From Adineta vaga (lineage: Eukaryota; Animalia; Rotifera): a stretch of DNA of 64,000 nt. Below the pieces are notes generated by a model. The model was not told where the DNA came from and did no database searches. It saw only the letters and a program-made list of their open reading frames with translations. The position numbers were made by a program, and so were the translations under genes. Positions within the stretch are counted from its first letter, which is position 1. The number at the start of each line of letters is the position of its first letter. Where the stretch lies: assembly GCA_021613535.1 (NCBI GenBank), contig CP075493.1, positions 10,974,001 to 11,038,000 on the forward strand. The letters are read 5' to 3'. This document shows positions 18,939 through 31,647 of this stretch, one piece after another.

Positions 18939-20132
18939 TCAATCTTTTAAGTTTTTTTCCATAATTTTGGCATAATGCTTCAATATTTTGTTGGTATCAT
19001 CTCCGAGTAATTCGTAGCATTGCTTTGATCGATCAAGAAGACGCATAATCATTTTAGGATTTTTCGATTCATTAGCAAACGCTTGAAAAGCACTCTCTCG
19101 ATAGTGTTGTCCCAATTTGTGGTATAAATGACTTATGAGATGATCTATTGAACAGACATAAGTTACATTTGAAGTGTTGACAATTTGTTCTGCTTTGCAG
19201 AAAAAAGAATAATTTAACAATTGAGAAAGTGCTAGTATTTCTGGAGTTGGTAATGTTGAAGAAACGACAATGATTGGGGTTGATATTTTTAAATTCGTTA
19301 CAGACAATATCACTTGATCATCTGATTCACATGTTATAATATGAGCAATATCAGGATCAAGATGAATCAGTTTAATCTCTTCTCCAATAGTAAATATGAT
19401 TGCTACAGAATCTCGATCTTCTTCGCTTATATGACGTTTTAATTTCTCTTCTATATCAATAGTTGAATTGGTTCGTCTAATTGACTGTTTGACTTCATTC
19501 TGTTGAGATTCAATATAATCTATTTGATCTTTGAAATCATTGTCTGCTAGTCGGGCAACACATGTCATTATTTCTTTTGCCCTACCAAAGTAAGTGAGTG
19601 CAAAGTCCGTTGATGATGGATTCTGGTTTTTAAGGTATTCACCTTTGCTTCGATAATATTGGCTTATGTCTTGTAAAAGACGAATTAGAAGATTTTTCGA
19701 CAAATCAAAACAAAGAACATCAATATCATATTTTCGGCAACGATCAATCCAATTAGCGATGCTCGAACTACAATCGCCCAAGATGTAGATTTTTTTAATA
19801 GACTTCCATGTTTCAGTCATCTGTATAAATATGTTTGTAGCACTGGAGTCCGATATGACAAAAAATATGTGGTTCGAACTTGTGTTTTCGTCAAAATAGT
19901 GGTAACATAGGTTTTTATCATCAAAAATTCGTAACTCTCCCGCTAATGTCGGTAAATGTTTCTTGATTTCACCGATTAACTCAGCGTCATCTTCAATGTA
20001 AATGTCATTCGTTTGATTTAATGTTGAGCGATCTCTATTAGTTTTCGGTGTACTGTCTAATTCGGATAGTTCAGACAAATTGAGCGACGATTTTAAGTAT
20101 ACTATTGTATAATCTACCTCAGGAATTGCCAT
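18939..20132 (-). CDS. Intronless protein with two degenerate receiver-like alpha/beta domains, each followed by a TPR-like helical pair
   Basis: 397-aa ORF. IFFVISD..IKKIYILG and IIVVSS..LLNYSFFC segments are each followed by LLIRLLQDISQYY / LISHLYHKLGQHY helices. Confidence 0.65.
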   Translation of the reverse strand: MAIPEVDYTIVYLKSSLNLSELSELDSTPKTNRDRSTLNQTNDIYIEDDAELIGEIKKHLPTLAGELRIFDDKNLCYHYFDENTSSNHIFFVISDSSATNIFIQMTETWKSIKKIYILGDCSSSIANWIDRCRKYDIDVLCFDLSKNLLIRLLQDISQYYRSKGEYLKNQNPSSTDFALTYFGRAKEIMTCVARLADNDFKDQIDYIESQQNEVKQSIRRTNSTIDIEEKLKRHISEEDRDSVAIIFTIGEEIKLIHLDPDIAHIITCESDDQVILSVTNLKISTPIIVVSSTLPTPEILALSQLLNYSFFCKAEQIVNTSNVTYVCSIDHLISHLYHKLGQHYRESAFQAFANESKNPKMIMRLLDRSKQCYELLGDDTNKILKHYAKIMEKNLKD

Positions 20133-21254
20133 TTGATTTAGAATCGTTTATATTGAGGAACTATCGTAAAGAAAGTAATAACAAGGTATTATTTTATCAT
20201 CAAATAAGATTGTCAGTTTTAGCGATGTGAGTATCGATATGGGTGTGGATGATGGGCCAGTCTAAACATACACTCTTATTTTATCGGCATCTACAAGTTC
20301 AAAACATACGTGCATACCCTAGGATTTCGTAAAAGGGGTTGACTAATAAAGTACGCTTTATTGACGTGCTCATGGACTAACATAATTTTAACAAACGAGT
20401 GAGTCATTCCGTTGCATTGGAAACTTTTCGAACTTTGTTTAAGAATAGTGCTGATAAGCCTAGAATCTAGCTGATTAATGACGAGGAAGACGCACGAGTC
20501 ATGTTTTTGAACCTCTGCTTTTAACTTTACCTATTTTACAAGAACTCTAATCGCATACTTTAGTTACCTGGTGCATGCGAAAATGATTCTATGCACATTA
20601 ATTATCGTCTGTACCACACGTTAAATATCAACTGCAATTCTATTTAATTTCGTACACTATAATTCGTCCTGAGTTGTCTCATCGGGAAGAAGAATTTACT
20701 TATAAACAAGCTACATATATGTCCATGAGACTGAAAAATGGTCCTACTTGTACGAACTAAGAGTTACGACAAATACACTATATTGAAATAAAAATTGCTA
20801 TATCTTTTTCATTCCTATGTTATTTTATATGGTAGGAAGTAATCTTATTCAGCTCGAATTACTTATGCTCTATTCCTGATAAGATTTTGGCAAAATAATT
20901 TCAGTGTGTATTTTATAGAAAGAAAAAACCTTTTCTTCATCATGAATACTCACTTTGTTGGGCTTCATAAAAGTACTAATAAAACATTTTATATGCACTT
21001 TCTACCTACAGAAGCTGTGTCACTACTATTTGCTTTCTCTTCTTACGAATCAACATATTCGCTAGCATAAAAAACATTTTCTTTCGGCGAAATGAAAACA
21101 ACTCGCATCATACGACGAAGAGAAAAACAGCATCTGCAAACATTCGTCGTCGTCGTCGTGCATCGCACAGTGAAAATATACTTATTATTATAGCTCGGCA
21201 GTAGTTTACATGCATATAAAAGCGTATTCACTTCCTAATAGTATGGCGGTGCAA

Positions 21255-22254: not shown

Positions 22255-23385
22255 CTACTCTAATGTTCTTTCGTCGATATTAAATTTCAGTACTCGATTA
22301 TTATTTGAATCTGCAACATAAAGATTATAGTTCAAATCAAAAGAGACATCCATGGGATTATTCAATTGATTTAGTTGTGTACTAGAACGATGTCCTCCAA
22401 TTAAAATACTTCCTTGAATAGCTCCTTTTAGCCATCGCATAATTCGATGATTGGAATAATCAACAACATAAATTAATTCTAAATCATCAATATAGATTCC
22501 TTCTGGAAATGATAAATGCTGTAAAGTACACCCTTCACCATTACCACCAGCAACGACAACACCTTCTTTTGCACCTCTGATCCATTTCATTACACGATGA
22601 TTTTGCCAGTCGGATACATACACTGAGTAATACTTATCATCCATTGTAATACCATAGCACCTGATCTCGAAAGGATCACTTCTCCACTGGATCCATATCG
22701 ACGTGCCCACTGCATTACTCGTCGATTTTCTCGATCGCAAATGATTAATTTATCAGCTTTCTTATCTATAAATACATCTGTTGGATAATTTAATTGATCA
22801 TTTTGATTTACTTGTTCTTCGGTTGCATCAATATTCCATTCTACAACACGATGTTTTAAATAATCAGTAATTACAACTGTTCGATCATCATCAACATCGA
22901 TACCATATGGCTTGAAGAGTGTATCAAGATCATCCTGATCATGAGGAACAATTGTATTTACAGCAATACCAGCTTGTATCCATTGTGTATTGAGACCAAT
23001 CTGCGAAGAATGCATCACTTCTAAAGATTGAAGCATCGAAACAAACCATGAATTCACTTTCTAAAACTCTTACCAATTGCTTGTGTAGTTTCCGTCACAA
23101 TACTTTCTGTTGAACTTTCACTCGATTTATTGGTAAGAAACGTACTCGGCTTATTGGTCACGAAGAAACTTGTGCTTACGTTGTTATACGAAAACTCTGT
23201 AGTAATCTGCTGTGATCGATTCATGAATTGTTGAGGTAAACGACTAGTAACTCTTTGTACTCTGCTATTTAGTTTTTCTTTACTTATTATGAAGAAAACT
23301 ATACCAACAATGAAGCTAAGAGTAAGGCATATTGAAATACTTCCAAATATATATTTAGATCTATTGAAATTTCGTACAGAACGAC
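22255..23385 (-). pseudogene. TM helix, Ser/Thr stalk and NHL-repeat beta-propeller; 1-nt frameshift at about 22671; no in-frame ATG of its own
   Basis: Exon 23385-23074 encodes GRSVRNFNRSKYIFGSISICLTLSFIVGIVFFII and an S/T-rich stalk. Intron 23073-23021. NHL motifs LNYPTDV, VVAGGNGEG, YVADSNNNRV. Confidence 0.8.
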
Positions 23386-23472
23386 CTAAACAAAAACTAC
23401 ACTGTACTTATCACATGATCAAATAAGTTTTGCACTTTTTTTACCATTACTGACTTGTTCTCAGGAGGACAG

Positions 23473-24573
23473 TTATTCATCATCATCATCAATACATTCT
23501 TTCAATTCAATTTCATATTGTACACTTGCCGTACATTTTATTTTATTTTTCACTTCAAATACCGCGAAGGGTAAAATTAATACTTCTTCTTCGTCAGGTA
23601 TTTTTGACATCTCGGCAGTATTGATTGCTGTTTTATTCTGTTTGATTGAATATTTCGATAAAACTGAGACTTTGGATTGATGATAATCATCGATGTTTAT
23701 CTGGCCAAAATTTTCTTTAGCAAAGAACCGAGCAACATCTTCTTTTTTTGATGTCGATAGAAATGTTCGATTCAATATATGATTACCAATCGTATAATGT
23801 TTGAAATCATTTGTTTTCATTGATAAACCACGGTAAACAGTCCCTAGATATTGATGTTCATAAATATCTGGATGATTTATCAATAATGTAACAATATGTA
23901 CTAAACAATTGATTAAACGATATTTTTTCGGTGAAGCGTAATAAGAATTTACATCGAAATAATCGAAGATATAGAGTGCAATATGTTCGTTCAGAACTCG
24001 ATAGAAACTATTTAATATAATTTTGTTCGTCAATTGCTTTTGAAAGGTTTTTGCGAGTTTTTCAGTTTGTTCTTTTGTAAAATGTTCAGATCGAATTAAA
24101 TAGTCTTTCAAATAATAATCAGTAATTTCAATTAATAGTTTTGTTATCAAGTGATTTTTATTATCATAAGTTTTGTATAAATCAATTTGTTCACGAAATT
24201 GTTTACGTTTTTTGATCATATCCGAGCCTGACAAACACCATTCGATACTACCATTTTCGTGTAAATAAAATAAATTATAATCCTTCTCTAATAATTGTCG
24301 TATTTCATCGATTTGTGATTGATGATAAGGTATCAATTTATGAAAATTATCTTTAAATAATTTGAATGCATTTTTAGTAAGATAGATTGAAATTTGTTTG
24401 TTTAATCCAGTGTAAACGACAAAATGGGATGAAACGTCGTCATGAAAAGTATTTCTTTGATCAATTGTTTTAATACGTGTTTCAAAATTAAAATATTTCG
24501 CAATTTGATAGTTCTCGTTAGTAGTCGATACATTGTATGTTAATGGTATCGTTTCTTCTTTATGTTTAAACAT
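23473..24573 (-). CDS. R-S-E type (NAD:arginine) mono-ADP-ribosyltransferase domain protein
   Basis: VYRG, FLSTS and DEEEVLILP (R-S-ExE) catalytic motifs of the cholera-toxin-like/VIP2 clade. Confidence 0.88.
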   Translation of the reverse strand: MFKHKEETIPLTYNVSTTNENYQIAKYFNFETRIKTIDQRNTFHDDVSSHFVVYTGLNKQISIYLTKNAFKLFKDNFHKLIPYHQSQIDEIRQLLEKDYNLFYLHENGSIEWCLSGSDMIKKRKQFREQIDLYKTYDNKNHLITKLLIEITDYYLKDYLIRSEHFTKEQTEKLAKTFQKQLTNKIILNSFYRVLNEHIALYIFDYFDVNSYYASPKKYRLINCLVHIVTLLINHPDIYEHQYLGTVYRGLSMKTNDFKHYTIGNHILNRTFLSTSKKEDVARFFAKENFGQINIDDYHQSKVSVLSKYSIKQNKTAINTAEMSKIPDEEEVLILPFAVFEVKNKIKCTASVQYEIELKECIDDDDE

Positions 24574-26615: not shown

Positions 26616-26982
26616 CTTTGACATAAAATTGTCATGTTTCACACAAATCAAAACACAATCATCATCATATTTAATAGAAACTCAAAGTATAATTATGCAC
26701 TCGGAAGAAGTTGTCTCACACTGATTTATCAAAAAACAGATACCTGATAAGAAAAAAAATATCAAATGATCATATCTTTATTGAATACAATCGACATATA
26801 TAAACGTCGAATATAAGGATGATGTATTGGATTTCATTTCGTCTCCATTGCCGATAGCAACAACAAACATCGAAAAAGTTAACTTTCAACTATAGATTAT
26901 ATCCTTTTACTGATTTGATATTTTATTTTCATTATTATTATTATTGAATTTTAAAAAGGATCTATTTGACGTTCACGTTACA

Positions 26983-27723
26983 ATGTTGATTGCTGCTTTA
27001 ATTCTTTTAGTTTTCTTCTTTAATCTACCTAGTACTTCAGCTGCGATTATTTGTAAATCTCCTTTAAAAATCTGTAATAATGTCTGCTATCATCCAAGCG
27101 TCCATCAATGTAGCAATGGTGTAGTCTGCAATACCAATCACAAAATATGCAATGGTCGGTGTTATGCACCTTATACAGAAAAATGCATTGACGGTCTCGT
27201 TTGTTTAAACGATCAAAAATTATGCGGTAATATGTGCTATAGACCTGCCGTACAAGAATGTATCAATGACGTAATCTGTGCTTCTAATCAGAAATGATGT
27301 AGCGGTCAGTGTTATACACCAAGTGTTCAACAATGTACTACTGGTGTTTCAATTTGTGAAAACAATGGAATACTTTGTGGTGGCAAATGCTATACACCAA
27401 GTACACAACGATGTATTAACGGTGTACTTTGTGCTTCTAATCAACTATTATGTAATGGTAAATGCTATACACCAGGTACGCAACAATGTGGTACTTCCAT
27501 TTGTGGCAGTGCTGAAATTCCGTGTGGAAACAAGTGTTATAAAACAGGCATACAACTGTGTTTCGACGGTGTAATTTGTGCTTATAATCAATTATCATGC
27601 AATGATAAATGTTTTACGCCAGGCACACAAAAATGCTTCAATGATGTAATTTGTGCTTATAATCAACAATTATGCAACGGTCAATGCTTCTCACCAGGCA
27701 TACAAAAATGTTTCAGTGGCTGA
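26983..27723 (+). pseudogene. Secreted Cys-rich protein with about 9 25-aa repeats (CBM52/Carb_bind-like); in-frame TGA at 27295-27297
   Basis: Signal peptide followed by the unit ICxxNQxLCNGxCYxPxxQxCxxGV. The same frame stays open for 141 codons of perfect repeats after the TGA. Confidence 0.8.
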
Positions 27724-28818: not shown

Positions 28819-29185
28819 TTATTAATTTAAAAAAACTTAATTGTACGAATGTGGTAATTAGCACATGATAATAAACTCGGAACAAGCTATCATAAGAAAT
28901 CTTCGAAAAGAACGCAGATAGATAGTAAGAGAACGCAAGAAAGAAAAAAATTAGACGCATGTACCTGCAACGACCTATAGGCTCGATATATGACTTTGTA
29001 TACGAAAGCAATACGTTTCATTTATTTTCGATAGGTGCGACTATTGGTAAACACTGAATTAATTTTAGTTTAAAATAATCATCGTTTATTTCTTATTCTG
29101 CATAGAGTAAGTATGACGTTTCTATGATAATATATTTTCTATTTATATTCAGTTTTAAAAAGAATTGTCGAACAAGTCTCATACA

Positions 29186-29548
29186 ATGTTGATCGCTTTG
29201 ATTTTTGTATTCTTCTTCATTCATCTACCTATTAGCTCAGCAGCAGCTATATGTACATATGATCAGCAACTATGTGGTAGCATTTGTTATAAATCCAGTA
29301 CACAACAATGTCTTCATGATATAATCTGCGCTTACAATCAGAAGCTATGCAATGATCGGTGCTATTTACCTGGTGTACAACAATGTTTTGGTCATATTAT
29401 TTGCGCATACGATCAAAAACTGTGCGGCAGTTCTTGCTATAAACCAGGAATACAACAATGTCGTAATAATATAATTATTAATTATAATCAGAATATACGC
29501 ATTGGTTGATGTTATATGGCAGGCACACAAAAATGTTTGAGTGACTAA
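29186..29548 (+). CDS. Secreted Cys-rich repeat protein, paralogue of 26983-27723; TGA at 29507-29509 cuts the last repeat
   Basis: Similar signal peptide and three intact repeats. After the TGA the frame reads CYMAGTQKCLSD*, matching the paralogue's end CFSPGIQKCFSG*. Confidence 0.8.
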
Positions 29549-29843: not shown

Positions 29844-31178
29844 TTAGATAGGAACATCTTCGATATCTATCCAGCAACGTTTTTGCCATGATTCTAAACC
29901 CTTTTCGGCCAATTGAACACCTTTGGCTGCAGCACGCAAATCCCAAGGAAATGGTTCATCTTTCACTACATGACGTAAAAATAATATCCATTGTATCTTA
30001 AATGCATTATCATAGACTTGATCGCCATCGTCCACAGCTGTCCATCCGTCTTGGAAATTAATAGAGCTATTCACATCGGGATTCCATACTGGACGTGGTG
30101 TAGCATTATAAGATTGTTTATAACAGTTGCGCAGTCCAGCCACTGCAGAACCATGAGTGCCATCAACCCAAAGAGTTAGTAGATCATCGCGTCTAACTCG
30201 AACACACCATGATGAGTTGAAATGTGCAATTATATTATCAGCTAATTGAAAAGTAGTATATGCTGCATCATCTGCTGTACATGTATAAGGTTGACCATGT
30301 TCATCCCAACGCTGTTTCATATGTGTCGCACCTAAACATGAAACAGCTTGAACTTCACCGAACAGATTATCTAGTATATAACGCCAATGACACAACATAT
30401 CAAGAATAATACCACCACCATCTTCTTTGCGATAATTCCATGAAGGACGTTGAGGTACGTTTTCATCTTCTCCAGTAAATACCCAGTAGCCAAATTCGCC
30501 ACGTACGGAAAGAATACGACCAAAAAAGTTCTTATCTTTCAATAATTTCAATTTCTGAAGTCCAGGTAACCACAATTTATCTTGAACAACACCATGTTTA
30601 ATTCCTGCTTCTTTGGCTAATTTATAAAGTTCATGAGCATCTTCAAATGTTTCTGCTACAGGTTTTTCACAATAGACATGCTTGCCGACTGCAATCGCTT
30701 TCTTCACTGCTGAAATACGTAATTTTGTTAATTGAGCATCAAAATAAATTATATTTTCTGGATTCATCAATGCTTCGTCTAAGTCAGTGGTCCATTGTTC
30801 TACACCTGTCTGAGTAGCCAGTTTCTCTAATTTAGCTTTATCACGACCAACTAAAACAGGAATTGGCATAATAATTTCCTGTTCATTGATTTTTATACCA
30901 CCTTCTGCAATAATTGCCATAATTGACCGAATTAAATGTTGATTTGTACCCATACGACCAGTTACACCGTTCATGATAATACCAATCTTATGAGTTTTCA
31001 TATTAGTAGATTCATTCAATTGTGCATTGTTAACATTTGCAGCTCTTTCAATATTGTCCTTGTTCAGATTGTGAGATGATAAATCAACTATAAGAAAGAA
31101 GTACATATTTTTTTTTCGAAGTAGAACATGACAAAATCTTTTTATTGATCGCCGATACTCACGTATATCTTCTGACAT
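29844..31178 (-). CDS. Gfo/Idh/MocA family NAD(P)-dependent oxidoreductase, bacterial-like
   Basis: IGIIMNGVTGRMG, HVYCEKP, QRPSWNYR and GGIILDMLCHW motifs. The core from M at 31001 is intronless. Probable intron 31162-31088 (GTGAGT..TTATAG) in the N-terminal extension. Confidence 0.92.
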   Translation of the reverse strand: MSEDIREYRRSIKRFCHVLLRKKNMYFFLIVDLSSHNLNKDNIERAANVNNAQLNESTNMKTHKIGIIMNGVTGRMGTNQHLIRSIMAIIAEGGIKINEQEIIMPIPVLVGRDKAKLEKLATQTGVEQWTTDLDEALMNPENIIYFDAQLTKLRISAVKKAIAVGKHVYCEKPVAETFEDAHELYKLAKEAGIKHGVVQDKLWLPGLQKLKLLKDKNFFGRILSVRGEFGYWVFTGEDENVPQRPSWNYRKEDGGGIILDMLCHWRYILDNLFGEVQAVSCLGATHMKQRWDEHGQPYTCTADDAAYTTFQLADNIIAHFNSSWCVRVRRDDLLTLWVDGTHGSAVAGLRNCYKQSYNATPRPVWNPDVNSSINFQDGWTAVDDGDQVYDNAFKIQWILFLRHVVKDEPFPWDLRAAAKGVQLAEKGLESWQKRCWIDIEDVPI

Positions 31179-31647
31179 TGAAAATTTTGAGTTTCAATTA
31201 CGCCTTTAGTTGAATTTTTGTGAAGAACGTGTGATAAGAAAAGAGCAACGCATATGAATCTTTTTCTTACATATGCAAATAGTATACTCAATAGAAGTGA
31301 AACAGAGAAAAGAAAACTAAGTGTATACTGACAGATGATTTTAAGACTACAGGACAGCCATTAGAGAGGATAGAATTAACTGGCAGATGAGTGTGATACG
31401 ATTCTTAGACAAGTAAAATAATAAAAATTACAATTTTCTACCGTTCTGACAAAGCCATCTTTAAATAATTACAAAATGGCGAGTTCGATTACACAAGAAT
31501 TGCGCAACTGAAAAGTAACGTGTTGTTTTTTTCGCTGTATGTTGATAAAACATACCTGACTGCACGTTGACATGTGTATTTAAATTTATAAAACTATCGA
31601 ATAAATATCAAAAAGTTCTCTAAAAGACGAACAAATCAGTCGAATTA

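Follow-up and report, generated by a model that had tools for sequence, protein, structure and literature searches.

The minus strand of the window (the whole stretch of Adineta vaga DNA analysed here, 64,000 nucleotides) carries the remains of a gene that very probably once encoded a single fused protein, in which an ADP-ribosyltransferase (ART) domain, a transmembrane (TM) helix, a Ser/Thr stalk and an NHL propeller followed one another. The explanation that best accounts for the observations as a whole, and which is probably correct, is that a member of a bdelloid gene family has decayed at this locus, with both haplotypes broken in the runs examined, and that the intact members of the family are likely to be single-pass receptors that would respond to ligand binding by ADP-ribosylation of a cytosolic target. 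The interest lies with this family rather than with the window allele, the architecture having come to light through a dead copy. The exons for the ART, the TM/stalk and the NHL part, the two phase-1 introns and both stops proposed in the initial annotation were all found in their predicted places. The features of the locus are as follows:

23445-24573 (minus strand): exon 1, with a degenerate ankyrin-like N-terminus, a helical domain, an R-S-ExE ART and a 10-codon acidic linker containing two stops
24573-23473 (minus strand): ART open reading frame (ORF), 366 aa, Pfam ART
24005-24038 (minus strand): conserved helix preceding the NAD-binding core, broken here; the other allele is about 32 bases longer
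23898-23901 (minus strand): site of a 5-base insertion in the other ART haplotype, found in three of four DNA runs, with a frameshift before the catalytic Arg
23830-23832 (minus strand): catalytic-site Arg (Y-R-G) assigned from sequence; R253, invariant in 56 relatives
23749-23757 (minus strand): S-T-S motif assigned from sequence; S278, invariant in the 56 relatives
23584-23592 (minus strand): E-x-E motif assigned from sequence; E329 and E331, shared by at least 90% of the 56 relatives
23512-23514 (minus strand): stop codon of the second allele, seen in a single X16 contig that also has the sense codons at 23475 and 23463
23475-23473 and 23463-23461 (minus strand): the two stops of the window allele, in the acidic linker; sense codons in the second allele
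23386-23444 (minus strand): predicted intron 1, 59 nt, GT-AG, phase 1, with the same splice sites in both alleles
23074-23385 (minus strand): exon 2, 312 nt, phase 1-1, with a TM helix at about 23338-23282 followed by a Ser/Thr stalk
23021-23073 (minus strand): intron 2, 53 nt, GT-AG, phase 1; the orthologue model P0277 has its junction at this position
22255-23020 (minus strand): exon 3, NHL propeller, with five blades versus six in the orthologue
23174-23491 (plus strand): spliced antisense RNA contig, with two introns that are GT-AG on the plus strand, 23236-23294 and 23322-23379

In a Pfam search, the ART ORF scored 27 bits for PF01129 (cut-off 22.3) and the repeats of exon 3 were recognized as NHL repeats (PF01436); with a profile of the ART family, the N-terminal region matched ankyrin repeats weakly. 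No hydrophobic N-terminus or signal peptide was found in the sequence at the start of the ART ORF. Exon 2 encodes a TM segment with a KD value of 2.65 and a stalk that is 41% Ser/Thr and contains three N-glycosylation sequons. Four of the 1037 donor-like sites on the two strands of the window open an in-phase TM exon, and two of these four are the ART-TM junction; the occurrence of this junction in the window is more than chance. The window's TM exon resembles, by eye, those of L004, L013 and P0064, and is itself neutral by the charge rule, with four Lys+Arg before the TM helix and five after it.

Fused relatives are numerous. ART searches retrieved 14 longer relatives and 101 of similar length, besides the window's own protein. 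The 78 of these 115 that could be parsed comprise 28 with a TM helix 17-51 aa past the ART, 13 with a long tail devoid of TM and 37 with a short tail; a TM helix is also visible in three of the 37 unparsed relatives (P0012, P0072 and P0086). Lys+Arg residues are commoner before the TM helix in 23 of the 28 TM-bearing relatives, and full-length relatives continue for 170-480 aa beyond it. P0121, an ART-TM-stalk-NHL protein of 747 aa, comes from metagenomes, a source from which it would appear to be encoded by one ORF, and 13 of the 15 members listed for its cluster (28 members) are full length. P0009 has the order ANK-ART-TM-NHL, and an ART-TM-PGRP protein is encoded within one intron-free ORF at L008 5923-7428 (L012 repeats L008, and L011 is a fragment). 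Just upstream of this ORF, two stand-alone ART-like ORFs and a CAP-domain gene (L008 2974-4659, plus strand) make up an ART cluster. A TM follows the ART in 10 of the 14 loci studied (eight distinct genes, with L003 counted without a phase check); L001, L002 and L007 end without a TM, and L014 has no motif. The window's order, in which an ART exon, a phase-1 intron, a TM exon, a second phase-1 intron and NHL succeed each other, is repeated in L004, L006 and L009, in which the NHL frame stays open as far as the contig reaches (for 23, 122 and 188 aa, respectively), whereas L005 continues into PGRP. The second intron of L009 (752-1360) is about 550-610 nt long, versus 80-150 nt in its close relative L006, perhaps due to an insertion. 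Scans that reach close relatives only gave no match to P0121 in viral contigs and no relative in genome contigs among 52 candidate stretches; at this reach they have no bearing on origin, and no donor or transfer is proposed. The single type II-like membrane protein postulated in the initial annotation, with the order ART, TM, stalk and NHL, is supported by the existence of fused, stop-free relatives, and by a second allele of the locus itself, in which both stops are replaced by sense codons and the splice sites are the same.

Many gene models of this family are short. A phase-1 donor (GTAAG or GTATG) is found at the ART end in 9 of the 14 loci, and 19 of the 37 short relatives end exactly 14 aa past the last ART strand. 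Most of the short models, which end at this conserved donor, are therefore explained by gene calling that has run on into the donor, and the family has remained hidden in annotations because gene models cut it at the conserved intron. The window donor is in the family's phase, four codons further out. Given the 13 of 78 relatives with long TM-less tails, together with P0002, P0005 and P0023, in which ART is joined to NHL without a TM, some models must skip the TM exon or be chimeric. Chimeric modelling probably explains the fusions in P0010 (aldo-keto reductase) and P0013 (kinase), which were left unused as evidence; P0006 and P0070 may be chimeric too.

The closest relatives of both halves of the locus come from A. 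steineri: P0016 for the ART (57%) and P0257 for the NHL part (68%). They lie on 16,168-bp contigs and have neighbouring accessions in eight record pairs. In a tree of 35 ART cores (P0128 and L004 excluded), the window ART is sister to P0016 with a support of 100/99. All eight record pairs split the A. steineri orthologue into two genes, its ART model meeting a stop after the linker, and this two-gene annotation counts against the fusion. The NHL models of the orthologue have no TM and no signal, and one of them, P0277, starts with residues corresponding to the last ones encoded by the window's stalk exon.

Alleles were compared in short-read contigs of four DNA runs from four studies, in which two alleles were seen; one of these runs is possibly the source of the window sequence. 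The phase of the contigs is only partly known, and is uncertain beyond about 31 bases, including between distant lesions. Joints with short sides and 80% likeness were taken as paralogues. The initial annotation had read ART, TM, stalk and NHL in one frame; this fails in the window, in which the NHL exon shifts frame at 22666/22667. As all four DNA runs carry one base more than the window at this site, the deficit is probably an assembly slip, and it is this slip that changes the NHL frame; an intron was rejected as the cause, since the candidate introns cut conserved blades and the reads show the extra base. All four runs also carry one base more at 24037/8. This is probably a second assembly slip, and it hides a real frameshift in the helix ahead of the ART core. 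The ART ORF of the window lacks 10-11 residues of this conserved helix, the first half of which sits in another frame ending in a stop (24037-24008), and the short-read form of the window-type haplotype stops at 24010-24008. The helical region before the core (Y-T...N..L) is intact in all 24 aligned relatives and missing in the window allele.

The other allele is damaged as well. The 5-base insertion and the longer helix lie on the same contig (depths 127.6, 18.1 and 16.1), the insertion not being shown in run X2; a rescuing intron was rejected by inspection, as it would cut the invariant helix. Because both ART haplotypes are frameshifted upstream of the catalytic residues in the short-read contigs, the 366-aa ORF is partly the product of an assembly slip. 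The corresponding protein is present as such in NCBI, and is probably not made. The suggestion that the window allele now makes a soluble ART is not supported, given that the frameshift of the window-type haplotype precedes the catalytic residues. The two stops had been described as single changes from CAA and CGA: the second allele does have sense codons at these sites, but it mismatches one of the two codons guessed. Stop-free fused homologues, for which the initial annotation had called, do exist among the relatives, and the second allele is free of stops at both sites but has a stop of its own 13 codons earlier, phased with the linker sense codons by a single contig of depth 2.4. In comparison with the six-bladed propeller of P0257, about 51 aa (roughly one blade) are missing near 22640, plus 8 aa; a 24-base indel occurs at 22807 in exon 3, and one allele keeps those 8 aa. 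The coding variants displayed (34 of about 120 variant places) comprise 11 synonymous, 20 missense and 3 nonsense changes, a synonymous share not far from the 27% predicted in the absence of selection; these variants look neutral. There is a good likelihood that the clone has no working allele. The truncated helix, the missing blade with the 8 aa and the breakage of the other allele had all escaped the initial annotation.

The RNA contig spanning the TM exon and intron 1 comes from run X17 (one contig, second allele, depth 4.66) and has three to four stops in each frame. It is considered an antisense transcript because it is spliced at plus-strand GT-AG introns and retains intron 1 of the gene. 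The contigs from runs of guessed or unrecorded kind consisted of two unspliced contigs from X16 and this antisense-spliced one from X17, a third run, X18, yielding none; no sense-spliced junction was present in these contigs, which have no bearing on expression.

Several neighbouring features of the window were also recorded. On the plus strand, 26914-27723 and 29159-29509 open like signal peptides and continue into Cys-rich repeats; with two pieces matching Pfam Carb_bind, they probably encode secreted proteins that bind carbohydrates, close to the receptor gene. An intron-free, bacterial-looking Gfo/Idh/MocA oxidoreductase at 29844-31193 (minus strand) is a possible foreign gene. The 402-aa intron-free ORF at 18939-20147 (minus strand) has no Pfam match above the cut-off, and a protein of the same kind, by eye, is encoded at L008 11992-12858.

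The structure model of P0016 has a mean pLDDT of 74.8, residues 1-77 being unreliable. Its fold matches XopAI, Vis, C3 and HopU1 (Foldseek E 4e-9 to 8e-7), and also that of a Tre1-type toxin (E 4e-9 to 2e-6 for all five), and the best sequence match of the ART is Vis (E 3e-7). An ExE motif goes with arginine as the acceptor, and on this motif the ART is predicted to be arginine-specific. In intact members of the family, the ART is probably active and faces the cytosol. An ART, with or without ANK, also follows TIR, kinase and LIM domains and precedes NACHT-HEAT (P0125, P0128, P0150, P0013, P0154 and P0243), combinations that hint that ARTs may serve more widely as immune outputs.

NHL is just one among several interchangeable outer domains, a point also absent from the initial annotation: the relatives carry NHL, PGRP, GH16, LRR, CD225 or 7TM parts. 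On the tree of ART cores, the NHL label requires eight changes, at least four of them forced by starred branches, a number equally low in 300 of 500 shuffles, and the PGRP label requires nine, at least three of them forced by starred branches; some outer-domain labels depend on possibly chimeric gene models or on a contig size shared between models. A catalytic PGRP amidase has four zinc ligands, His-Tyr-His-Cys. At the positions that we take to be these ligands, the fourth, Cys, is absent from all nine domains with a complete C-terminus (24 sequences given, 19 aligned and 5 unparsed), and the GH16 of P0004 lacks both of the residues presumed to be its catalytic Glu. Judged by these residues, the PGRP and GH16 outer domains would bind without catalysis, like recognition-only proteins. 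We infer that ectodomains have been swapped by the shuffling of phase-1 exons. The repeated recruitment of non-catalytic PGRP and GH16, LRR and NHL to one position fits selection for ligand binding.

The receptor proposed for the intact members would work as follows. Such a protein would be inserted with its N-terminus inside, consistent with the lack of a signal peptide and with the Lys+Arg bias in 23 of 28 relatives, giving a predicted type II topology with the ART inside and NHL, PGRP, GH16 or LRR outside. The outer domain would bind a microbial or matrix ligand, ligand-driven clustering would relieve a brake formed by the ankyrin-like or helical N-terminus, and the ART could then transfer ADP-ribose to an arginine, either of a target in the cytosol or of the receptor itself. 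Phase-1 exon borders would allow outer domains to be exchanged and the TM exon to be skipped. The steps beyond topology are modelled on PGRP-LC and enzyme-linked receptors, and by the same analogy ligand-controlled immune signalling by intact members is put forward tentatively. The family may conceivably constitute an undescribed class of bdelloid enzyme-linked immune receptors, exon-shuffled, with a toxin-type ART inside the cell and outer sensors for peptidoglycan, glucan and other ligands, the copies of which are lost allele by allele like fast-turnover resistance genes; we rate this idea as a little less probable than its negation.

The locus could instead consist of two neighbouring genes, one for a soluble ART and the other for a TM-stalk-NHL protein that starts independently, in keeping with the window annotation, which has the 366-aa ART alone, and with the two-gene annotation of the orthologue. 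The initial annotation had denied the TM-NHL part any in-frame ATG, which is not strictly true: an ATG at 23447-23445 could reach the TM frame via a 43-nt intron ending at the AG at 23402. However, this ATG is absent from the other allele, the linker codons of which are sense, and intron-free and full-length fused relatives exist, the donor phase is conserved across the family and the orthologue's NHL models contain neither TM nor signal; a two-gene arrangement is very improbable. It is also rather improbable that one haplotype still makes a working receptor or a soluble ART, with the lesions lying on the other haplotype or being contig artefacts. Sense codons at both stops in the second allele, the longer helix and the 24-base NHL piece each found in one allele, and the uncertainty of contig phase past about 31 bases would allow for this, but the longer-helix allele bears the 5-base insertion on the same contig in three of four runs, the allele with sense linker codons has the stop at 23514 on the same contig, and the neutral look of the variants argues the same way.

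Two further explanations concern the intact members. They could be membrane-tethered ARTs, constitutive or alternatively spliced, in which the outer domain serves only for localization or as a decoy and no signal crosses the membrane. Many models do end after the ART or just past the TM, some skip the phase 1-1 TM exon, and passages of bioRxiv 2021.09.04.458992 report the PGRP and GNBP families to be little up-regulated in bdelloids upon fungal infection. Repeated recruitment of binding domains to the same position, and the explanation of most short models by gene calling at the conserved donor, speak against such a tethered enzyme, which we consider unlikely. The proteins could also be defence toxins acting outwards, the C-terminal domain binding a microbe and the ART being released onto the microbe's proteins; the nearest folds are indeed those of bacterial toxin and effector ARTs, and a binder joined to an enzyme is a toxin layout. 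Yet there is no N-terminal signal peptide, a TM separates the ART from the binder, the charge bias places the ART inside in 23 of 28 relatives and no translocation domain was found, so that this role has very little likelihood.

No description of ART-TM-outer-domain proteins was found in the full-text literature searched, which was mostly open-access and the supplements of which may list such genes; the receptor architecture is apparently undescribed. Sections of PMC12957317 indicate that another ART family, linked to Crinklers, occurs in rotifers too, and those of PMC12220480 and PMC10809525 report GO enrichment for ADP-ribosylation, with a discussion of PARP activity in PMC12220480. Excerpts of PMC9334734 and PMC8878817 contained nothing relevant to ART-TM-outer-domain proteins. 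According to parts of PMC3417536, eukaryotic mono-ARTs are nested within the bacterial toxin ARTs. The genes described here would offer concrete, testable candidates for bdelloid immunity, the receptors of which have barely been studied, and ART-TM-PGRP combines an obvious ligand with a natural intron-free member (L008). The output of known enzyme-linked receptors comes from kinases, cyclases, phosphatases or TIR domains, and a receptor of the kind proposed would, if real, add toxin-type ADP-ribosylation as a new output chemistry for animal pattern recognition.

The rotifer ART shares its fold and the Y-R-G, S-T-S and ExE motifs with bacterial R-S-E mono-ARTs (Vis, 4xzj; XopAI, 6k94; C3, 1g24; HopU1, 3u0j; Tre1-type toxin, 6drh/6dre), but at 12-21% identity, in an animal gene with introns and with no delivery part, and the family adds a predicted ankyrin-like and helical N-terminus, a TM helix and a C-terminal binding domain. 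It belongs, like the vertebrate ecto-ARTs ARTC1-5, to Pfam PF01129 and to the R-S-ExE type. In ARTC1-5, which carry a signal peptide, the enzyme lies outside the cell, either GPI-anchored or secreted, whereas the rotifer proteins have no signal peptide and their enzyme is predicted to lie inside, ahead of the TM. PARP16 is a tail-anchored ART facing the cytosol, but it is of the H-Y type and has no ligand-binding ectodomain. Drosophila PGRP-LC is a type II protein with a non-catalytic PGRP outside that signals via an adaptor-binding cytosolic motif rather than an enzyme, and the GNBP/beta-glucan recognition proteins are secreted, non-catalytic GH16 binders; the rotifer relatives resemble PGRP-LC in their predicted type II layout and apparently non-catalytic PGRP, and the GNBPs in an apparently non-catalytic GH16. 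Receptor kinases, guanylyl cyclases and phosphatases, mostly type I proteins, cross the membrane once, with an outer domain that varies and an enzyme in the cytosol, an arrangement that would recur in the rotifer family with an R-S-E ART as the enzyme.
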